From: an uncultured Atribacterota bacterium
GTDB lineage: Bacteria > Atribacterota > Phoenicimicrobiia > Phoenicimicrobiales > Stramentimicrobiaceae
Assembly: GCA_964636625.1 (NCBI GenBank)
Contig: CAZWUL010000001.1
Span: 20,534 to 84,533, forward strand
Length of the DNA stretch: 64,000 bases
Reading direction: 5' to 3'
Part shown: piece after piece, positions 3,534-55,720 of the stretch
Position numbering within the stretch: position 1 is the first letter of the stretch
Layout of the letters: every line of letters starts with the position of its first letter
Notes under the pieces: model-generated
Database searches by the model: none
The model's input: only the letters and a program-made list of their open reading frames with translations
Told to the model about the DNA's origin: nothing
Translations under genes and position numbers: made by a program

Positions 3534-4598
3534 ATGAATATAAATATTGATTTAATAAAAATATTAGACGAAATTGAAAAGGATAAAGGCATCTCAAAGG
3601 AAGTCTTAATTGATACAATTGAAACTTCTCTTGTTTCTGCATATAAAAAAAATTTCGCACAAGGTAGAGATAATGTTGAAATAATATTTAGTAAGGAGAC
3701 TGGCAAGGTGCAGGTTTTTAACAGAAAGAAAGTTGTTGACGCGGTCAAAAACCCTTCTGCAGAAATAAATTTTGAAGAAGCCAACCAGTTAGGAAAAGGT
3801 AGCATTGCAGTTGGGGATGAAATAAATATAGAGATAACCCCAAAAGACTTTGGTAGGATTGCGACTCAAACTGCCAAGCAAGTTATAGTTCAAAAAATTA
3901 GAGAGGCAGAGAGAAAAGCAATTTTTGAGCGTTATATTGATAAAGTAAGAGACATAGTCACCGGTATAATTCAGAGGACAGAAGGCTATAATATTATTGT
4001 AGATTTGGGAAAGGCTGAAGCAGTCTTGCCTATAAACGAGCAGGTTAAAAGAGAGAATTACAACAAGGGAAAAAGAATGAAATTTTACGTTATTGAGGTG
4101 AAAAAAACTTCCAGAGGACCCAGAATAGTTCTATCTAGAACACATCCTGATTTACTAAAACGTTTATTCGAATTGGAAGTGCCCGAAATCCATGAAGGGC
4201 TAGTTGAAATTAAATGTATTGCAAGAGAAGCAGGAAAGCGCTCAAAAATAGCTGTTGACAGTAAAGATGATAATGTTGATTCTATCGGTTCCTGTATTGG
4301 GGATAGAGGATCTCGAATTAAATCTATAATGACTGAATTACAGGATGAAAAAATTGATGTTATAAAATGGGATGATGATGAGAAGGTATTTATTGCAAAT
4401 TCTCTTAACCCCGCAAAAGTACTACTTGTTCAGTTATTCGAAAAAGAAAAAAAAGCCCTTGTTGTAGTTGACGATGCTCAATTATCCCTGTCAATAGGCA
4501 AGGAAGGGCAGAATGCAAGATTAGCTGCAAGGCTAACAGGATGGAAGATAGATATTAAAAGTGATTCTCAATATAAAAAAGATAAAAAAGATGAATAG
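3534..4598 (+). CDS. nusA: Transcription termination/antitermination factor NusA
   Basis: N-terminal domain, S1 and two KH domains, 354 aa. Followed by ylxR and infB. Confidence 0.95.
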   Translation: MNINIDLIKILDEIEKDKGISKEVLIDTIETSLVSAYKKNFAQGRDNVEIIFSKETGKVQVFNRKKVVDAVKNPSAEINFEEANQLGKGSIAVGDEINIEITPKDFGRIATQTAKQVIVQKIREAERKAIFERYIDKVRDIVTGIIQRTEGYNIIVDLGKAEAVLPINEQVKRENYNKGKRMKFYVIEVKKTSRGPRIVLSRTHPDLLKRLFELEVPEIHEGLVEIKCIAREAGKRSKIAVDSKDDNVDSIGSCIGDRGSRIKSIMTELQDEKIDVIKWDDDEKVFIANSLNPAKVLLVQLFEKEKKALVVVDDAQLSLSIGKEGQNARLAARLTGWKIDIKSDSQYKKDKKDE

Positions 4599-4658
4599 AA
4601 ATGACATAAAAATATAATATCTTATATTGTCAATTTAGCAGGTAAAAAAACAATTACC

Positions 4659-4943
4659 ATGAAACATTCTAAAAAAATACCTTATAGGACATGCGTAGGC
4701 TGTCAATTAAGGAAACCAAAAAAAGAATTACTTAGAATTATAAGAACACCGGAAGGTATAATAGAAATTGATGTAACCGGAAAGAAATCAGGTAGAGGGG
4801 CTTACCTGTGTTATAATATGGAATGTTTTAAAATGGCAACCATAAAAGGTAAGCTAAATAAAGCCTTAAAGGTGGAAATTTCAACGGAAACGATTAAATT
4901 AATAGAAGAAAAGTTTAAAGAAATAGAAAATGTGTCATCATGA
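4659..4943 (+). CDS. rnpM: YlxR/RnpM family protein (DUF448)
   Basis: 94 aa with the RTCVGC motif, in the conserved position between nusA and infB. Confidence 0.8.
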   Translation: MKHSKKIPYRTCVGCQLRKPKKELLRIIRTPEGIIEIDVTGKKSGRGAYLCYNMECFKMATIKGKLNKALKVEISTETIKLIEEKFKEIENVSS

Positions 4944-4981
4944 CATGTTTAACTACCCAAAGTGAATTGAGTCCGGGGTAA

Positions 4982-6937
4982 ATGGAGGTCATCAGTATGA
5001 AAAAAAGAGTATATGAAGTAGCTGAAAATTTAAAAATCCCTACCAAAAAACTTATTGAATTTCTAAAAAAAGAGGGTATCAATGTTAAAAATCATATGAG
5101 TACCCTTGATTATGAAACAATAGAAATTATTCAAGAAGCCATTGCTGAAGATGGAATACAAGAAGATAGTAAGAAAAAAGAAACAAGGGATATAATTGTA
5201 TTAGAAAAAATACCAAGCTTAAAAGATTTATCAAAGCAATTGAAAATTCCTCTATCGAAAGCAATGCAACAAGTATCAAAATATGGGAATATACATTCTA
5301 TAGAAAAAGAATTGCCCTGGCAAATTGCAAAGAAAGTATATGAAGAAAATGATTTTAAAGTTGAAATTACAAAAAATTTTAAAAAGGAACTTAAATCAAA
5401 AAAAACAAAAGAAACCGAACATACAATGCTTACAAAATCACCTGCTATTACTATTGTTGGGCATGTAGACCATGGTAAAACAACTCTTCTCGACATGATA
5501 AGAAAGAGTGATGTTACTAAAAAAGAAGCAGGGGGTATAACTCAACATATTGGAGCTTATGTTGTGGAGGTAAAAAACAATCGATTTGTATTTATTGATA
5601 CTCCCGGACATGAGGCTTTTACTACTATGAGAGCCAGAGGAGTGAAAGCAACTGATATTGTTGTACTGGTAGTGGCGGCTGATGATGGTGTTATGCCTCA
5701 AACAGTGGAAGCCATAAATCATGCCAGGGCAGCTAATGTACCCATTATTGTAGCTATCAATAAAATAGATAAACCGAACGCTAATATCGATAAAGTTAAA
5801 AAAGACCTTTCAAAACATGAATTGGTTCCTGAAGAATGGGGTGGTGACACTCTTGTTGCAGAGATATCTGCTTTACAAGGTAAAGGTATAGATGAATTAT
5901 TGGATTTAATCTCAATTCAAGCTGAAATGTTAGAACTGCAAGTTACACCACAACTTCCTGCAACTGGAATAGTAATAGAAACAAAATTAGATAAAAGAAG
6001 GGGAATTCTTGTTACGGTTCTGATACAAAATGGTCATTTAGATATAGGAGATTATTTTGTTGTTGGTTCTGCTTTTGGAAAAGTAAAGAGCATGATGGAT
6101 GACAAGGGCAAAAGATTAAAGCATGCTGGACCTTCAACTCCTGTAGAAATCACTGGTTTTAATAAAATGCCTATAGCCGGAGATGTTTTTCAAGTAGTTG
6201 CAGATGACCATTTTGCAAAAACAATAATTGAAGAAAGAGAATCAGAGAAAAAAAGAAAACAAAAACAGAGTATTGACACTGACAAGGTTTCTTTAGAAAA
6301 TTTATTTGAGGAGATGGCAAAAGGCAAACTAAAAGAGTTAAACATGATATTAAAAGCTGACACACAAGGTTCTCTGGATGCCATATATGGTACACTTTTT
6401 AATTTAAGCAATGAAGAGGTTGAAATTAAAGTTATTCACAGCGGGATCGGAGCAATAACAGAAACAGACATAATGTTGGGTTCTGCTTCTAATGCATTAA
6501 TTGTAGGGTTTAATGTAAAAGTTGATGTTAATTCCCAAAAGCTGGCAAAGAAAGAAAAAGTCGATGTCAGGACCTATAATATAATCTATGATTTAGTTGA
6601 TGAAGTAAAAGCTGCCTTAAAAGGGTACCTGAAACCAAAGCTTGAAGAAGTTATTAACGGAAAAGCAGAGATAAGAGAAATATTCAAAATACCAAAAATT
6701 GGAATTGTTGCTGGCTGTTATGTAACAGAAGGCAAAATATCTATCAAAGATTATATACGTGTTTTTCATGAAGACAATAAAATATATGAAGGTAAAGATT
6801 TTTCCATAAAACGTTTTAAAGAAGATGTAAAAGAAGTAAATGAAGGTTATGAATGTGGAATAAACATTGATAAGGTTGATGATCTACAGGTAAAAGATAT
6901 TATTGTTTTCTATAATTATAAAGAAATAGAAAGATAA
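4982..6937 (+). CDS. infB: Translation initiation factor IF-2 (true start probably 4997 after GGAGG)
   Basis: GTPase G1 motif GHVDHGKTTLLD, DTPGHEAF, NKID. 651 aa. Confidence 0.95.
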   Translation: MEVISMKKRVYEVAENLKIPTKKLIEFLKKEGINVKNHMSTLDYETIEIIQEAIAEDGIQEDSKKKETRDIIVLEKIPSLKDLSKQLKIPLSKAMQQVSKYGNIHSIEKELPWQIAKKVYEENDFKVEITKNFKKELKSKKTKETEHTMLTKSPAITIVGHVDHGKTTLLDMIRKSDVTKKEAGGITQHIGAYVVEVKNNRFVFIDTPGHEAFTTMRARGVKATDIVVLVVAADDGVMPQTVEAINHARAANVPIIVAINKIDKPNANIDKVKKDLSKHELVPEEWGGDTLVAEISALQGKGIDELLDLISIQAEMLELQVTPQLPATGIVIETKLDKRRGILVTVLIQNGHLDIGDYFVVGSAFGKVKSMMDDKGKRLKHAGPSTPVEITGFNKMPIAGDVFQVVADDHFAKTIIEERESEKKRKQKQSIDTDKVSLENLFEEMAKGKLKELNMILKADTQGSLDAIYGTLFNLSNEEVEIKVIHSGIGAITETDIMLGSASNALIVGFNVKVDVNSQKLAKKEKVDVRTYNIIYDLVDEVKAALKGYLKPKLEEVINGKAEIREIFKIPKIGIVAGCYVTEGKISIKDYIRVFHEDNKIYEGKDFSIKRFKEDVKEVNEGYECGINIDKVDDLQVKDIIVFYNYKEIER

Positions 6938-30127: not shown

Positions 30128-30176
30128 TAAATATTGCAAATAATTTAGAAATGTGGTATATTACAAAAAATATACT

Positions 30177-30204
30177 ACGTCCGATAATGTATCTTATGTA
30201 AAGT
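30177..30204. other. Candidate dif site (XerC/XerD chromosome dimer resolution site) at the replication terminus
   Basis: ACGTCCGATAATGTATCTTATGTAAAGT matches B. subtilis dif ACTTCCTAGAATATATATTATGTAAACT at 22/28 positions and the XerD arm TTATGTAAA exactly. It lies exactly where the gene strand switches. Confidence 0.6.
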
Positions 30205-30573
30205 TATTATTTTATTAATAAAAACTGGTTAGTATATATTTTTTGAAGTTATCTCTCTTATATCACCGTCATAAGTAACAGGGTTGTTTAACAATTTTGA
30301 CTATATTCCCCTTTTATAATATTGCAATATCTTCTGATATAAATACAAAGTACAAAGTTTAAAGTCTCACGATTTGAATAAAAAGTATCACTTAGTAAAA
30401 ATTATGTTCTTCCCCGTGTCTGATTCCAGCAAAGATGATGATTTTTTGTCGTTTTCCCGGTCATCTGCAATTCGGATACTGATTCTAAGACAATAGAGCG
30501 AAGATTGGCAGTATTTTTGTAAAGTTAATACTAATTTCTTATGATTATACCCCTTCTTTATCGGGTATTCATA

Positions 30574-31113
30574 CTACTTTAATTTATCAATTAGCTGGTA
30601 GATAAAATTAATATTTCCTTCATTATCATCAGGAAATTCTTGGGCAAAATCGTGCATTGAAAGGATTAATAAGCGTATCAGTCTTTCTTTGTCTTTATCT
30701 GAAATGTCCAGGTTATTCTTCTCTTCTGCACTATATACTAAAAATCTCATAAGCATGAAAATATGACTTTTTAGGTCTGAGATTAATTTATTATCAATTT
30801 TGTTACTTAAAAATTCTCTCCCAAATATTCTGAGCCTTACTATTTCATTATAAAGAACTTCAACAAATTCATGTGCAGTTTTCTCTTTTTCGATAATATT
30901 ATTTAGAGAAAAAAATATCTGATCAAAACTCAGTTTGAATGATTTTAGAAATAATTCTTGCTTATCAGAATAGTAATTGTAAAGCGTTCCTACAGAAATA
31001 CCGACCTCTTGGGCAACCATTTTCATAGTTACATTATTATAACCATTGTCTGCAAAAAGATTAAAAGCAGAAATATTTATTCTTTCTTCTATATTATCAA
31101 GAATCTTTGGCAA
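30574..31113 (-). CDS. TetR/AcrR family transcriptional regulator
   Basis: N-terminal HTH (NVTMKMVAQEVGISVGTLYNYYSDKQELF), 179 aa. Confidence 0.85.
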   Translation of the reverse strand: MPKILDNIEERINISAFNLFADNGYNNVTMKMVAQEVGISVGTLYNYYSDKQELFLKSFKLSFDQIFFSLNNIIEKEKTAHEFVEVLYNEIVRLRIFGREFLSNKIDNKLISDLKSHIFMLMRFLVYSAEEKNNLDISDKDKERLIRLLILSMHDFAQEFPDDNEGNINFIYQLIDKLK

Positions 31114-31127
31114 TTGGTAACCCCTAC

Positions 31128-31174
31128 TATTATGAATACATATTCATAATATATCAAAGAAATACTTTTGTCAA
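31128..31174 (-). promoter_or_regulatory. tetR promoter (TTGACA, 17 nt, TATTAT) with overlapping palindromic operator
   Basis: Inverted repeat TATTATGAATA-ca-TATTCATAATA (31128-31151) overlaps the -10 hexamer, 15 nt upstream of the tetR start. Confidence 0.55.
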
Positions 31175-31238
31175 AATATATGGCAAGTAATTAAGTTATT
31201 GTTGCTAAATTATAAGAATAATTTAATTATATGTACAG

Positions 31239-31583
31239 CTAGCAGGATAAATGCAGAGCAGCAACTTTTTTTATATGTTTCTCTTGATTATATTCTTCAC
31301 AAGCTTCTTTTGTTTTTTGTATTGTGATATATTTTATACCCTTTTCTTTAATTTTTGTTATTGTAGTATCGTTAACATGCATTAATCCAAACATGCCTGT
31401 TCCTATGATTAGAACATCAGGCTTGTAGCCAATTACATCATTTAAGTCTTTGATGTCCAGAATGTGCCCTTTCTCTCTCCGCCAATTCTGAATGATTGTA
31501 TCAGGAAAGATAATTACATCTGAGTTATATATTTTATCATCGATTGTTATTTTACCGAATTGATATCTATTAATAAAACTCAT
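31239..31583 (-). CDS. Mth938-like domain protein (DUF498)
   Basis: 114 aa with a DVIIFPD...W...H.L...DL...PDVLIIGTG..G.M pattern typical of the MTH938 fold family. Confidence 0.6.
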   Translation of the reverse strand: MSFINRYQFGKITIDDKIYNSDVIIFPDTIIQNWRREKGHILDIKDLNDVIGYKPDVLIIGTGMFGLMHVNDTTITKIKEKGIKYITIQKTKEACEEYNQEKHIKKVAALHLSC

Positions 31584-31685
31584 AATCTAAATATGTTTTC
31601 CCCTTTTCGTTTTAATTGAGTGATGTAACTGATTTAGTGTTATTTGGTTTTTCAATTACAGTGCATTTTAATATTTTTATAAAAA

Positions 31686-32543
31686 TCACTGCTTAAAAAT
31701 TATCGAAGCATATCCTACTACTTGCTCATTCATTTCTGATACATCACCAGAAGTGGCATATTTTAATAATTCGCCTCTTTTTATGCCATATTTCTTACAA
31801 ATCTCAATAACTACTGCTATTGGGCCAGGACCACATATAGATGCCTCATTACGTTTAATTGTCTGGTAAAAAAGCCGAGAATTCATATTCACTATTTGTT
31901 CTATTGCTTCGTAATCTTTCCGCCTTGCACTTTCTTGAATTTCATAATGTGTAAAATCAGAGCTGGCAATAAATAAACATGAGCTATCTTGTGTAGCTGT
32001 AAATATAGTATTTGCCAGTTTTTCCATTGTAGGTAACTGTTGATTAGTGATACTTATTGGAACTATTCTAAATTGAGACTTAGAATAAATAAACTGTAAA
32101 AATGGTAATTGTACCTCAATAGAATGCTCTAAGAGATGAGCTTGGGTGTCTTCTTGTATAATATTTTCTTTATCATTATCAATAATATTTTTTGCAAGTT
32201 TTTTGTCGATTTCAATACTACCAAGTGGTGTTTCCCAAAAACCAGAAGACATTAGAGAAACCGCCTCTCCTAAACCTCGGTGATTGGGTCCAAAAAGTAT
32301 TACTGTATCCGGTGCTTTTTGATATGATAAACTTAAAAAATTGTGTGCAGCGATAGGGCCTGAAAATATAAAGCCCGCATGTGGTGAAATAATCCCTATT
32401 ATTTTTCTCTCTTTCTGAGTGTTTTCAGGTAACTTTTGAGGTCCAATTTCATGAAGAAAGCATTCTTTTAATTGTTTGGATAATGATTCTTTGTCTGCAT
32501 CATAAAATGAGCCAGCTACCATAGCTTTTCTTGTGTGTTCCAT
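31686..32543 (-). CDS. MEMO1-family protein (AmmeMemoRadiSam system protein B-like)
   Basis: N-terminal AGSFY, IISPHAGFIFSGPIAAH and GPNH motifs characteristic of the Memo family, 285 aa. Confidence 0.8.
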   Translation of the reverse strand: MEHTRKAMVAGSFYDADKESLSKQLKECFLHEIGPQKLPENTQKERKIIGIISPHAGFIFSGPIAAHNFLSLSYQKAPDTVILFGPNHRGLGEAVSLMSSGFWETPLGSIEIDKKLAKNIIDNDKENIIQEDTQAHLLEHSIEVQLPFLQFIYSKSQFRIVPISITNQQLPTMEKLANTIFTATQDSSCLFIASSDFTHYEIQESARRKDYEAIEQIVNMNSRLFYQTIKRNEASICGPGPIAVVIEICKKYGIKRGELLKYATSGDVSEMNEQVVGYASIIFKQ

Positions 32544-32582
32544 CTTAAACCTCCCATTATATATATTACAAGAGATAGAATA

Positions 32583-34049
32583 TTAAAACCTGGTTCTACC
32601 GCGGTAGTGTTTACCGCCTTTTTTCTTCTTTTTTGATATTTTTGGTAAGATAAATAAAATAATAACCGCAATTATTATTATTATAAAAATAATTTTGAAA
32701 AACAAAGAATTATATATGTATTTTAAATAAGCTAAGTAATAATCTATTTTGATATTTGGATAATCGTGCTGACTGGCAATAACAGTTTTATAGTGATTAA
32801 CTGCCTCCTTGTATTTACCGTCACTGCTATATTCTGATGCTAATCTATAATGAGCATCAACAATTTTTAGCTCGACATTCTGGTCATTTGGATAATCTTG
32901 CAAAATTATGTTATATTGGTCTATAGCTTCTTTGAATTGTCCATTTTCAAAATATGCAAATGCCATTGCTCTTCTAGATTCGTAATCCTTTGGATCTTTT
33001 TTTATCACATTTTCCAGAGATTCTATAGCTTTCAACCATTCTTCCTCTTCAATATACTCCATTCCCAGTTGTTTATTAATGATTATTTCTGAAATACAAT
33101 ATTTTACAATTCGATTATTTCCAGCATCAGCAACATATATATAGCCTCTATCATCAACAGCTATTCCTTCAGGATAATGCAAAGAAGTATCATTTTCCTC
33201 ATGCCCAAATTCAGTTACAAAAGCAAGATTAGAGTCATATTGAACCACTTTACCGTTTCTATAGTCAGTCACATAAACATTTTCATCACTATCGATAGCA
33301 ATATAACGAGTACCATTAAATTCACCAGGACCACTTCCAGCAACTCCCAGTCTTTTCATAAATTGACCATTTTGGTTAAAAATTTGTACCTGATGATGGA
33401 AAGTATCTGCTACATATATATTACCTTCTTTATCAAGGGCTATTCCCCTTGGATAATAAAATTCTCCATCACCCATTCCTTCTCTACCAAAAGAATACAA
33501 GAAATCAAAATTCTTAGAAAATACCTGAACCCTATTATTGCCAGTATCAACCACATATATATTACCTTCTTTATCAAGGGCTATTCCCCTTGGATTATCA
33601 AATTCTCCGGGATTACTACCATTCTGTCCGAATATTTGCATTGATTTTCCATTTTTTGATATTTTATGTAAACGGTTATTATGTTGTTCCACTACGATAA
33701 TATTATCATCTTCATCTAATGTTATGCCTACTGGTCCGTCAAGTTGATTATTTTCATTCTCATCAGGAATGGTACCAATTATTTCACCATTACTGTTAAA
33801 TATTTGTATTCTGTCATTTTCCCAATCAGTAACATATATATTGTTATCCTTGTTTAAAGTTATACCAACAGGGTAATTAAATTCTCCTTCCCTGCTTCCA
33901 AACACACCAAAGGTTTTCTCAATAACATAATTATTATCAATGGCATAAATATTTCCATTGAAAATAGCTAAACTAAAAACAATAATTATAAAAAACATTA
34001 ATTCAATATATTTTTTTTTGTATATGGAAAACATAATAATATACCTCAC
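32583..34049 (-). CDS. NHL-repeat beta-propeller plus TPR membrane protein
   Basis: Signal/TM N-terminus, six NHL repeats (DxxGNIYVxDxxNxRIQ), TPR-like helical region, a C-terminal TM segment and a KKKKKGGKHYRGRTRF tail. Confidence 0.75.
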   Translation of the reverse strand: MRYIIMFSIYKKKYIELMFFIIIVFSLAIFNGNIYAIDNNYVIEKTFGVFGSREGEFNYPVGITLNKDNNIYVTDWENDRIQIFNSNGEIIGTIPDENENNQLDGPVGITLDEDDNIIVVEQHNNRLHKISKNGKSMQIFGQNGSNPGEFDNPRGIALDKEGNIYVVDTGNNRVQVFSKNFDFLYSFGREGMGDGEFYYPRGIALDKEGNIYVADTFHHQVQIFNQNGQFMKRLGVAGSGPGEFNGTRYIAIDSDENVYVTDYRNGKVVQYDSNLAFVTEFGHEENDTSLHYPEGIAVDDRGYIYVADAGNNRIVKYCISEIIINKQLGMEYIEEEEWLKAIESLENVIKKDPKDYESRRAMAFAYFENGQFKEAIDQYNIILQDYPNDQNVELKIVDAHYRLASEYSSDGKYKEAVNHYKTVIASQHDYPNIKIDYYLAYLKYIYNSLFFKIIFIIIIIAVIILFILPKISKKKKKGGKHYRGRTRF

Positions 34050-34066
34050 AATATTTACGAAAAACT

Positions 34067-34708
34067 TTATGTATCAATTGCTTTACAAGAATTGATCAAC
34101 TCTTTTATTGTCCTTTCTATTATCAAAAGAGACTCTTTTTGATATTTTATATCTTTTTCTCTTGTATTATCAAGATGTATTGGTTTGCCAATATTTACAT
34201 AAATATTTTTTCTTTTTAAAAAAGAAGGTATCGTTGAACCTGGCGGATAAATATCATATGTACCATGAATTCCTACTGGCATTATTGGTGCATTTGACAT
34301 TAATGCTATTTTGATAAATCCGACATTCAATTCCAGTAGTTCTCCATTCAATGAACGAGTTCCTTCAGGAAAAATACCTAATATTTTTCCATTTTTTAAA
34401 ATATTGATGCTCTTTTTTATAGAAATAATACTTGCCTTTTTTCTATCAACTGGAATAGCACCAAGTGTTTTCACAATAATTCCCAGTATTGGAACATCAA
34501 ATACTTCTCTTTTTGCAATAAAATGAATTTGCCTATTAATAGCAGTTCCTAATACTATTGGATCTAAATAACTAACATGGTTAGCAGCTAATATTATTGG
34601 GCCGGTTTTGCTTAAATATTTTTCACCTTTCACTTTTATAGGCCAAAACAAAAAGCTTAATATCTTTCCTAAAAAACAAGCTAATTTATAAATCATTATT
34701 ATACACAC
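34067..34708 (-). CDS. plsC: 1-acyl-sn-glycerol-3-phosphate acyltransferase
   Basis: HxxxxD motif (NHVSYLD) and FPEGTRS motif, 213 aa. Confidence 0.85.
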   Translation of the reverse strand: MCIIMIYKLACFLGKILSFLFWPIKVKGEKYLSKTGPIILAANHVSYLDPIVLGTAINRQIHFIAKREVFDVPILGIIVKTLGAIPVDRKKASIISIKKSINILKNGKILGIFPEGTRSLNGELLELNVGFIKIALMSNAPIMPVGIHGTYDIYPPGSTIPSFLKRKNIYVNIGKPIHLDNTREKDIKYQKESLLIIERTIKELINSCKAIDT

Positions 34709-34773
34709 AACTTTTATTATAATATTCTTAAATAATGTATTTTAATGTATTTTGTAATTTGTTATTTATCAGG

Positions 34774-34847
34774 TGTGCCCGAGAGGATTTGAACCTCCAA
34801 TCTACGGCTCCGGAGGCCGTCGCTTTATCCAATTAAGCCACGGGCAC
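34774..34847 (-). tRNA. tRNA-Arg (anticodon CCG)
   Basis: The reverse complement folds as a cloverleaf. The acceptor stem is GTGCCCG/CGGGCAC, the anticodon stem-loop GGCCT-CCG-GAGCC reads anticodon CCG, and the T-arm is GGTTCAAATCC. Confidence 0.8.
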
Positions 34848-54793: not shown

Positions 54794-55720
54794 TCATTTT
54801 CTTGGAATAGTTTTTTTATATGTTTTTATTAAACTATCTTTGGTAATATGAGTATATATTTGTGTTGTAGACAAACTTTCATGTCCGAGCAATTCTTGCA
54901 CCGATCTTAAATCAGCACCACCATTTAATAAATGGGTTGCAAAAGTATGTCTAAAAACATGCGGGCTGATTTTTTTGTTAAGACAGGCAATTTTAATATA
55001 CTTATTAATAATTCTTCGAATACTTCTAGCTGAAAGCCTTGTCCCAATATTATTAATAAATAATGCTTTATCTGATATTAATTGCCGATAGTTAACATTT
55101 GGAATTTGCTTTCTGTATACTAAATAGTTTTCTATTGCCTTTTTAACCGGATCGCTAAAAGGTACTATTCTTTCTTTAGAACCCTTGCCAAGAACTCTTA
55201 TCGTATTATCTTGAAAACTTATATCATTTATATTTATATCAGAAAGCTCTGTAACTCTCATTCCGGTTCCATACAATAATTCTATAATCGCTTTATCCCT
55301 TTTAGAAGTAGGGTTATTTGCTTTGAAAGACTGAATTAGCTTGATTATTTCTTCATAAAACAAGAAATCTGGCAATCTTTTTTTTACTTTAGGGATTTGC
55401 ACATATTCTGCTGGATTGCTATTAATTAATTCCTGTTGCATTAAATATTTAAAAAACACTCTAAAAGAAGATATTTTCCTTGCTATTGTCCTATCAGCAT
55501 ATCGTTTTTGCTTTAAAAAAACAACATATTTTCTTATAAGCAGGCAATCTATCAAGGAAAAGTCAGCAATCTTGTTAATATTATTGAGGTATAAGAATAA
55601 ATCTTCTAAGTCCCTTAAATATGCATTGATAGTGTTGTAAGAGAAGTTCTTTCTTTCTTCCAAATATTTTCTATAATTATTTAATTGATTTTGCACTATT
55701 AATTTTTTATTTTTACTCAT
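54794..55720 (-). CDS. xerC: Tyrosine recombinase XerC (CodV-like)
   Basis: Catalytic R...HxxR...Y (HVFRHTFATHLL...TQIYTH), 308 aa. Neighbourhood topA-xerC-hslVU as in the B. subtilis codV operon. Confidence 0.85.
   Translation of the reverse strand: MSKNKKLIVQNQLNNYRKYLEERKNFSYNTINAYLRDLEDLFLYLNNINKIADFSLIDCLLIRKYVVFLKQKRYADRTIARKISSFRVFFKYLMQQELINSNPAEYVQIPKVKKRLPDFLFYEEIIKLIQSFKANNPTSKRDKAIIELLYGTGMRVTELSDININDISFQDNTIRVLGKGSKERIVPFSDPVKKAIENYLVYRKQIPNVNYRQLISDKALFINNIGTRLSARSIRRIINKYIKIACLNKKISPHVFRHTFATHLLNGGADLRSVQELLGHESLSTTQIYTHITKDSLIKTYKKTIPRK

Follow-up and report, generated by a model that had tools for sequence, protein, structure and literature searches.

Does a TetR regulator that ends a row of genes in an Atribacterota chromosome control the Memo and Mth938 genes beside it, and do these two belong to a known system or form a module of their own? 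A sequence-only reading of the 64-kb window (the whole stretch of DNA analysed here) had proposed that Memo and Mth938 make up a dedicated small-molecule or redox operon under ligand-responsive control by the adjacent TetR, and had named the locus an orphan AmmeMemoRadiSam component. We arrive at a different explanation, to which we give a probability of about 0.75: that two unrelated units, a plsC-to-mth938 cluster and an autoregulated orphan TetR, lie side by side at the terminus of the chromosome.

Gene content of the locus

The features on which the argument draws are as follows.

30179 to 30204, minus strand: dif-like Xer recombination site, ACTTTACATAA-GATACA-TTATCGGAC, where genes converge and the GC skew switches
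30209 to 30570, no strand: 362-bp non-coding filler beside the dif-like site, in the slot that holds radical SAM/SPASM (plus cyclase) in relatives
30574 to 31113, minus strand: TetR/AcrR-family regulator, 179 aa, TTG start (Pfam TetR_N, 1.6e-13)
31128 to 31174, minus strand: TetR promoter-like site and putative operator, near-consensus boxes with an overlapping palindrome
31239 to 31583, minus strand: Mth938-type DUF498 protein, 114 aa (Pfam DUF498, 1.8e-19)
31686 to 32543, minus strand: archaeal-type MEMO1-family protein, 285 aa, intact H55/H88/C237 triad (Pfam Memo, 1.6e-81)
32583 to 34049, minus strand: NHL beta-propeller and TPR protein, 488 aa (Pfam, five NHL repeats, 2.7e-47, plus TPR)
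34067 to 34708, minus strand: PlsC-type lysophospholipid acyltransferase, 213 aa, with which the cluster begins (Acyltransferase, 9.3e-33)
34772 to 34847, minus strand: tRNA-Arg(CCG), between the plsC cluster and the V-type ATPase operon

Profile searches against Pfam and NCBIfam upheld the domain identities that had been read from the sequence for the four open reading frames TetR, DUF498/Mth938, Memo and NHL plus TPR, all of which lie on the minus strand at the coordinates listed. The N-terminal helix-turn-helix of TetR (PF00440, residues 16-56) scored 50.6 bits against a cutoff of 24, and Memo matched PF01875 over its full length (residues 7-281) at 273.9 bits against a cutoff of 27, together with the NCBIfam MEMO1-family model NF001987 (300.6 bits, cutoff 295) and TIGR04336 (AmmeMemoSam_B, 304.3 bits). 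The Mth938-like assignment likewise survived, both in the profile search (PF04430, 70.2 bits, cutoff 33) and in direct phmmer matches to PH1505 (2cyj, 4.5e-7) and MTH938 (1ihn, 4e-6).

Human MEMO1 binds metal through H49, H81 and C244 (PMC11081632). The Memo protein of the window carries H55, H88 and C237 at these ligand positions, as had been expected of it, and D196 and H199 where the human protein has D189 and H192; the His/His/Cys triad is invariant across 20 homologues. By sequence, then, this is a MEMO1/LigB-fold protein with an intact His2Cys putative mononuclear Fe/Cu site.

An exhaustive phmmer search gathered 1277 relatives of the DUF498 protein. The family-invariant residues are G10, D22, W34, R36, H40, D46, G63 and H111, with a near-invariant C-terminal C114. 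Longer DUF498 proteins were found fused only to dienelactone hydrolase or to an RNase_H_2 (RNase H-like) domain, with no fusion to Memo or AMMECR1 among them, and none to Memo in the top 150 Mth938 representatives. We know of no member of the Mth938/DUF498 family with a known function, nor, to our knowledge, is an activity known for any prokaryotic member of the MEMO1 family.

Upstream of Memo, the NHL/TPR protein is hydrophobic near its N terminus (residues 12-37) and carries towards its C terminus a transmembrane segment (442-475) followed by a basic tail; it is predicted to be exported and membrane-anchored. The PlsC protein scored 111.8 bits against TIGR00530, whose cutoff is 102.95.

A conserved cluster in Atribacterota

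The order VatD-PlsC-NHL/TPR-Memo was found in all eight Atribacterota lineages, with NHL/TPR orthologues (54-77% identity) always directly upstream of Memo, and Mth938 lies directly downstream of Memo in seven of the eight. The exception is L008-10, in which Memo is kept, Mth938 is lost and TetR is absent; the 900-bp gap after Memo in these genomes holds no DUF498 remnant. TetR adjoins Memo(-Mth938), in the same direction, in three of the eight (the window, L015/16 and L020/21), and four of the seven lineages that possess the Memo-DUF498 pair, L001-4, L011-13 and L014 among them, have it without TetR. The locus had been described as the only accessory block in its surroundings, a view that this distribution overturns: because PlsC-NHL/TPR-Memo is present in 8/8 lineages and Mth938 in 7/8, the Memo-Mth938 block is core, and the slot that varies among lineages is that of TetR alone.

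Within the window the gaps from plsC through NHL/TPR and memo to mth938 are 17, 39 and 102 bp, and no minus-strand terminator was predicted within the cluster. We therefore propose, as the first of the two units, a vertically inherited, phylum-conserved and co-directional series plsC, NHL/TPR, memo, mth938 (34708 to 31239, minus strand). Its promoter probably lies between tRNA-Arg and plsC, and Memo and Mth938 would be co-expressed. Mth938, with its own invariant His/His/Cys/Asp/Arg/Trp set, may be a small soluble partner of Memo, conceivably an accessory binding or metal-handling subunit that would serve it in Atribacterota only.

It is synteny that suggests such a functional coupling of Memo and Mth938, in a single phylum in which the surrounding genes all keep their order as well. 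A serious competitor, to which we allow somewhat less than even odds, holds that the adjacency is inherited gene order and nothing else, with no functional relationship and no module. It gains from the phylum-wide synteny of V-ATPase, tRNA-Arg, plsC, NHL/TPR and memo, which takes in functionally unrelated genes, and from the loss of Mth938 beside a retained Memo in L008-10; the failure to find the adjacency outside the phylum from either side (below) and the lack of Memo fusions noted above also speak for it. Against it, the adjacency persists down to 54% identity in Memo and 49-51% in Mth938 beside a highly variable terminus, and does so with short gaps (17-142 bp) and constant orientation.

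Memo and Mth938 outside the phylum

The claim that the pairing is conserved in other genomes thus stands for seven of eight Atribacterota lineages, and fails beyond them. Using the Memo alignment, we gathered the nearest 79 Memo loci outside Atribacterota (archaea and Chloroflexota), none of which has DUF498 within 7 kb of Memo; conversely, 80 DUF498 loci of another Mth938 clade, gathered by means of a tight DUF498 sub-clade alignment, have no Memo nearby. Within this sampling the Memo-Mth938 pairing is limited to Atribacterota.

In most sampled archaea this Memo clade sits between the gene for ribosomal protein S2 and genes for mevalonate kinase, isopentenyl-phosphate kinase, IDI2 and GGPP synthase. 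Because archaeal Memo adjoins this S2/mevalonate-kinase gene set and the Atribacterota Memo cluster includes a lysophospholipid acyltransferase, one might suppose that plsC, NHL/TPR, memo and mth938 constitute an Atribacterota-specific membrane-lipid or envelope module, that archaeal-type Memo acts generally in membrane-lipid biogenesis and that Mth938 is a lineage-specific accessory such as a metal-handling subunit. We regard this as improbable. In Chloroflexota (Dehalococcoidia) the contexts of archaeal-type Memo are heterogeneous, and no lipid gene recurs beside it. Literature searches on Memo-Mth938, AmmeMemoRadiSam, DUF498/COG1355 and Memo-mevalonate links found nothing relevant in the collection searched.

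The TetR gene and its radical SAM/SPASM partner

To return to the two-unit explanation, its second unit is the TetR gene, which is neither divergent nor first and comes last, after Memo-DUF498. Between DUF498 and TetR there is a promoter-like site (TTGACA at 31174-31169, a 17-nt spacer and TATTAT at 31151-31146), and a perfect 11+11 palindrome of 24 bp, TATTATGAATA-NN-TATTCATAATA, overlaps its -10 box at 31128-31151. The palindrome occurs once in the window, in which no second operator was found at up to 3 mismatches to the 24-mer or up to 2 mismatches to its 16-mer core; a further TetR site too degenerate for these searches may exist. The same promoter/palindrome arrangement precedes every TetR orthologue, in five lineages and whatever the neighbours, and L019 has a further copy ahead of DegV-radical SAM.

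What follows TetR in relatives is a radical SAM/SPASM gene. This succession was found with TetR orthologues of 47-75% identity in L015/16, L017, L019 and L020/21, and in L017 and L019 the TetR-radical SAM/SPASM pair stands without Memo or DUF498. The window lacks the second member. In a blastn comparison with L020 the flanks are homologous, while 2.17 kb of that locus (4372-6543) have no counterpart here and are replaced by 362 unrelated bp, which contain no open reading frame of more than 42 aa and gave no Rfam match; tblastn for a radical SAM remnant in 30128-30573 returned matches at noise level only. We do not put the missing gene down to misassembly, since at least 19 contigs, drawn from several samples, show the arrangement without radical SAM.

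At about 30-31 kb the GC skew reverses sign and genes converge, and the dif-like site, whose two arms flank a spacer of 6 bp, is found again with at most 5 mismatches at the corresponding place in L008, L011, L014 and L020/21. We take its arms to resemble those of E. coli dif. An Xer-type recombinase is encoded at 54794-55720 of the window. The terminal position given in the sequence-only reading is borne out by these signs: the GC-skew switch and the conserved putative dif-like site mark the Memo/TetR block as the predicted replication terminus. Across the window, Rfam matched tRNA-Arg and nothing else. Variable genes turn over at the terminus, and the dif-like site is conserved.

As we picture it, the TetR repressor would bind the 24-bp palindrome that overlaps its own -10 box, and in relatives would control an operon of TetR-(DegV)-radical SAM/SPASM(-cyclase); in the lineage of the window, the radical SAM/SPASM cargo was deleted beside dif, leaving an autoregulated orphan TetR, and Memo and Mth938 would not be regulated by it. 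TetR is a self-contained unit, here without its usual partner, and stands beside Memo-Mth938 by chance. It does adjoin the pair in three lineages, which is possibly more than chance would give.

Regulation of Memo and Mth938 by the neighbouring TetR, as had been proposed, is consequently very unlikely in our estimate. The three genes are adjacent and co-directional in the window, in L015/16 and in L020/21, which is what the proposal has in its favour. Yet TetR comes last, with its own promoter and putative operator behind DUF498 and a palindrome that is unique in the window; the promoter/operator and the downstream radical SAM/SPASM gene, the conserved partner, move with TetR to other sites (L017, L019); and no TetR lies beside Memo-DUF498 in L001-4, L011-13 or L014, nor beside Memo alone in L008-10. 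Read-through from DUF498 into TetR may occur.

Absence of an AmmeMemoRadiSam system

That neither AMMECR1 nor the radical SAM activase is encoded nearby had been noted from the sequence, and the search of the 64-kb window agrees. Neither an LRGCIG-type motif nor a tblastn match (E<=1, with a Pfam-verified AMMECR1 query) pointed to AMMECR1 in the window or the Atribacterota loci, and no AmmeMemoRadiSam-type radical SAM (TIGR04337) was found in the window, in which just two open reading frames, MtaB (425 bits) and MiaB (485 bits), have the CxxxCxxC motif. A radical SAM/SPASM gene, AMMECR1 or more TetR operators may lie elsewhere in the genome, outside the window.

The status of an orphan is, however, nothing remarkable. 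The nearest 79 Memo loci outside the phylum likewise lack AMMECR1 and radical SAM neighbours, with one AMMECR1 as the exception (6 kb off, on the opposite strand) and CxxxCxxC in 3 of the 989 open reading frames around these archaeal and Chloroflexota Memo genes; the orphan state is normal for the archaeal-type Memo clade. The label itself comes from a low-cutoff NCBIfam model: at 26 bits TIGR04336 passes all Memo proteins, and its name is therefore no sign of an AmmeMemoRadiSam system.

Very unlikely, too, is a variant system in which the SPASM radical SAM is the partner of Memo in relatives, Mth938 replaces AMMECR1 and the window is a decayed version that has lost its radical SAM: in L015/16 and L020/21 Memo-DUF498 is indeed followed after 1-2 kb by a co-directional radical SAM gene, but it is SPASM-type (best NCBIfam matches NirJ2, AhbD and mycofactocin maturase, all far under cutoff, with TIGR04337 not among the top 25), accompanies TetR without Memo in L017 and L019 and is missing near Memo in five lineages, and the rarity of CxxxCxxC around Memo elsewhere and the failure to find AMMECR1 likewise count against it.

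Significance

Since TetR is self-contained and a chance neighbour of a Memo-Mth938 pair confined to Atribacterota, the locus is unexceptional and offers a modest lead. The functions of prokaryotic Memo and Mth938 being unknown, a real conserved partnership, if true, would be a useful lead. The analysis removes a false regulatory link, TetR being part of a radical SAM/SPASM unit deleted here. It also makes plain that calling a protein AmmeMemoRadiSam protein B is no evidence for that system. The dif site, gene turnover at the terminus, the TetR-radical SAM/SPASM unit and the archaeal linkage of S2, Memo and mevalonate kinase are possible seeds for follow-up, which does not make the locus remarkable.

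Comparison with known systems

The Memo protein is about 25-30% identical to human MEMO1 (PDB 3BCZ/7KQ8) and shares with the MEMO1 family its membership in the LigB-like class III dioxygenase superfamily. Its clade is archaeal-type, with its closest relatives outside Atribacterota in Bathyarchaeia, Thermoprotei and Nitrososphaeria (39-49% identity); the partners differ, being PlsC, NHL/TPR and Mth938 here and S2 and mevalonate kinase in archaea. The DUF498 protein falls into the length class (112-118 aa) of MTH938, PH1505 and human AAMDC (PDB 1IHN, 2CYJ, 2AB1) and has the C-terminal H-x-[ST]-C motif in common with that family, in which adjacency to Memo is seen in Atribacterota only and other clades adjoin endonuclease V, RtcA or C-N hydrolase genes. 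With the AmmeMemoRadiSam system (TIGR04335/04336/04337) the locus shares a match to the Memo-like protein B (TIGR04336), whereas AMMECR1 and the PflA-like radical SAM are absent from the window and from the surroundings of Memo in all the Atribacterota loci. Like autoregulated repressors of the TetR/QacR type, the TetR protein combines an N-terminal TetR helix-turn-helix with a palindrome over its own promoter; it departs from that paradigm in that the regulated cargo of its relatives, a radical SAM/SPASM gene that DegV or a cyclase may accompany, is absent from the window.

Gene assignments

All four open reading frames lie at the positions claimed by the sequence-only reading, and Pfam and NCBIfam profile searches confirmed the domains it had assigned:

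30574-31113, minus strand: TetR regulator, 179 aa, TTG start (TetR_N, 1.6e-13)
31239-31583, minus strand: Mth938-type protein, 114 aa, encoded by the DUF498 gene, mth938 (DUF498, 1.8e-19; 70 bits, cutoff 33)
31686-32543, minus strand: Memo, 285 aa (Memo, 1.6e-81)
32583-34049, minus strand: NHL/TPR protein, 488 aa (five NHL repeats and TPR)

The Mth938-like assignment was further borne out by direct matches to the solved structures PH1505 (4.5e-7) and MTH938 (4e-6), with which the window protein shares a C-terminal H-x-[ST]-C motif. Across an alignment of 88 diverse Mth938-type proteins, residues G10, D22, W34, R36, H40, D46, G63 and H111 do not vary, and the terminal cysteine, C114 (C-terminal motif AALHLTC), hardly does. 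By conservation pattern, this set of residues resembles a binding or metal site; we found no earlier description of it as such.

Memo scored 304 bits against the NCBIfam AmmeMemoSam_B model and 300.6 bits against the stricter 'MEMO1 family protein' model (cutoff 295). Its alignment with human MEMO1 spans the full length and places the metal-ligand residues H55, H88 and C237 at human H49, H81 and C244, which coordinate Fe or Cu as determined by crystallography and mutagenesis (Dolgova et al., PMC11081632). D196 and H199 pair with human D189 and H192, and 20 homologues share all five residues without variation. In the NHL/TPR protein, a hydrophobic segment lies at the N-terminal end, and a transmembrane segment near the C-terminus precedes a basic tail.

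A phylum-conserved cluster beside a variable terminus

The proposed location at the replication terminus holds, since the GC skew changes sign at ~30-31 kb of the window, genes converge at the same point, a conserved dif-like site lies exactly there, and an Xer-type recombinase is encoded:

30179-30204, minus strand: dif-like site, 26 bp, ACTTTACATAA-GATACA-TTATCGGAC, with conserved counterparts at the equivalent position in five further Atribacterota lineages
54794-55720: Xer-type tyrosine recombinase

Counterparts of the site in other Atribacterota loci (L008, 9709-9731; L011, 9446-9468; L014, 4293-4315; L020, 6549-6571) give the consensus ACTTTACATAA-GATAYA-TTATCGGAC. Variable genes of different lineages occur on both sides of it, and gene turnover is concentrated in the slot that follows DUF498, as four loci show:

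L001, 8493-16345: IS3-family transposase, M20 peptidases and amidohydrolase
L011, 9963-16697: DUF3800/HEPN-AbiV/DNA-methyltransferase/LexA-like island
L014, 4465-4701: XRE regulator
L008: slot empty

The names carried by homologues assign the window to an Atribacterota (OP9/JS1) genome. We compared eight distinct Atribacterota lineages, whose Memo proteins are 54-80% identical to that of the window. The order V-ATPase D, (tRNA), PlsC, NHL/TPR, Memo was found in all eight, and the DUF498 gene directly follows Memo in seven, being truncated by the contig end in L022 and absent, without a remnant, in L008-10. TetR comes next in only three. Because the order is kept while content beyond DUF498 turns over, the genes that the sequence-only reading had called an accessory block are core to the phylum, and what really varies is the TetR slot adjoining dif. 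From plsC to mth938 the genes are spaced by 17, 39 and 102 bp, with no predicted minus-strand terminator inside the cluster, which is compatible with a putative plsC-to-mth938 operon.

Memo and Mth938 outside Atribacterota

Scored with an HMM from 88 diverse family members, the best 79 non-Atribacterota Memo loci (species-representative genomes, 39-49% identity; Bathyarchaeia, Thermoprotei, Nitrososphaeria, Hadarchaeota, Dehalococcoidia and others) showed no DUF498 gene within 7 kb. Conversely, 80 metagenome loci of another DUF498 clade, 62 of them flanked by at least 1.5 kb on one side, contained no Memo gene; neighbours were mixed (endonuclease V, RtcA, C-N hydrolase, GGDEF proteins), and three more contigs carried DUF498 alone. 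Family members are fused to dienelactone hydrolase and RNase H-like domains, and none to Memo or AMMECR1. In the metagenomic proteins P0179, P0263 (~348 aa) and P0227 (545 aa), the Mth938 domain is fused C-terminally either to an alpha/beta hydrolase resembling dienelactone hydrolase or to RNase_H_2 (PolB-exonuclease-like); these may be real fusions or merged gene calls.

The pairing is thus conserved in other genomes within Atribacterota but, being absent from both sides outside, amounts to a one-phylum synteny. Its retention beside a fast-changing region is suggestive of functional coupling; it is no proof, since synteny extends equally to functionally unrelated neighbours and Mth938 was lost from one lineage, and we put the chance that the two are coupled at all close to even.

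Around Memo in the 79 archaeal and Chloroflexota loci a different block is strongly conserved (counts within 3 kb, slightly higher within 7 kb): enolase (49), ribosomal protein S2 directly upstream (58), Memo, mevalonate kinase directly downstream (44), isopentenyl-phosphate kinase (39), type-2 IDI (38) and polyprenyl synthase (31). The S2-Memo-mevalonate kinase linkage may point to a role tied to isoprenoid lipid synthesis. That archaeal-type Memo is linked separately to isoprenoid-lipid genes in archaea and to PlsC in Atribacterota suggests a lipid or envelope role for it, which we nonetheless regard as improbable. The literature searched contained nothing on the Memo-mevalonate-kinase block, on Memo-Mth938 or on the other linkages described here; the archaeal neighbourhood of COG1355 was reportedly noted in early comparative-genomics work.

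TetR as a probable separate unit

A predicted promoter close to consensus (TTGACA, 17 nt, TATTAT; 11 of 12 positions match) directly precedes the TetR start, and a perfect 11+11 palindrome, TATTATGAATA-NN-TATTCATAATA (31128-31151), overlaps the -10 box of this promoter. The window holds no second copy at up to three mismatches, nor a second good copy of the 16-nt core, and no operator-like palindrome was found 5' of plsC, the NHL/TPR gene, memo or the DUF498 gene. TetR orthologues (47-75% identity) all have TTGACA, a -10 box and an ATGAATA...TATTCAT motif upstream, and in every lineage except the window's a gene for a 450-500-aa radical SAM enzyme with a SPASM-type domain (rSAM/SPASM) follows.

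TetR-(DegV)-rSAM/SPASM(-PF04199 cyclase) units in Atribacterota loci
L015/16 (L015, 7001-9163): TetR, then rSAM/SPASM
L017 (7001-9011): TetR-rSAM behind a MacAB-type efflux cluster; no Memo nearby
L019 (7001-9893): TetR, DegV, rSAM/SPASM amid unrelated genes; second operator copy between TetR and DegV
L020/21 (L020, 3829-6454): TetR, rSAM/SPASM, then cyclase

The unit and its putative ATGAATA..TATTCAT operator are conserved in Atribacterota, the cyclase sometimes coming last. Its rSAM carries an extra N-terminal stretch of ~110-140 aa and reached no named NCBIfam family (best NirJ2, AhbD and mycofactocin maturase, all far below cutoffs); its association with DegV suggests a substrate related to fatty acids.

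The window and its closest relative, L020, match in four DNA segments: DUF498 (74%), TetR promoter/operator (87%), TetR (80%), and dif with the miaA 3' end (78%). In place of 2.17 kb of L020 encoding rSAM and cyclase, the window has 362 unrelated bp (30209-30570). Located between dif and the TetR stop, these are AT-rich and non-coding, and they contain no rSAM remnant, no Rfam family and no ORF longer than 42 aa. Several samples yielded this rSAM-less arrangement, on at least 19 contigs in all, and mis-assembly is therefore ruled out. The simplest account of these comparisons is an autoregulating TetR that normally controls an rSAM/SPASM operon, a cargo that the window lineage has deleted next to dif.

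Two probable units rather than one module

We favour, with a probability of about 0.75, a phylum-conserved Memo/Mth938 cluster beside a separate, autoregulated TetR without cargo. The first unit would be constitutive and comprise plsC, the NHL/TPR gene, memo and mth938, with a predicted His2Cys Fe/Cu-binding Memo probably co-expressed with PlsC, the exported NHL/TPR protein and a small Mth938-type protein as its putative accessory; the second would be an independent TetR that has lost its radical SAM/SPASM cargo. A TetR-controlled Memo-Mth938 module, as proposed from the sequence alone, accords with the gene order in the window but is very unlikely given TetR's own promoter, a palindrome unique in the window and orthologues paired with rSAM/SPASM.

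Memo had also been described as an orphan AmmeMemoRadiSam component. The partners are indeed missing nearby: the 64-kb window yielded no AMMECR1 (LRGCIG-type screen; tblastn with a Pfam-verified AMMECR1 from the archaeal/Chloroflexota locus L051), and CxxxCxxC occurs only in the tRNA methylthiotransferases MtaB and MiaB, leaving no radical SAM activase. Their absence is, however, the norm for this Memo clade, because the radical SAM cysteine motif occurs in only 3 of 989 ORFs neighbouring the 79 Memo genes and AMMECR1 in one locus, 6 kb off on the opposite strand. The label itself stems from an NCBIfam model with a 26-bit cutoff. A variant AmmeMemoRadiSam system is very unlikely: the TetR-linked rSAM of relatives is SPASM-type, whereas the AmmeMemoRadiSam enzyme is PflA-like. 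The locus combines known families in an arrangement that is undescribed but unremarkable.
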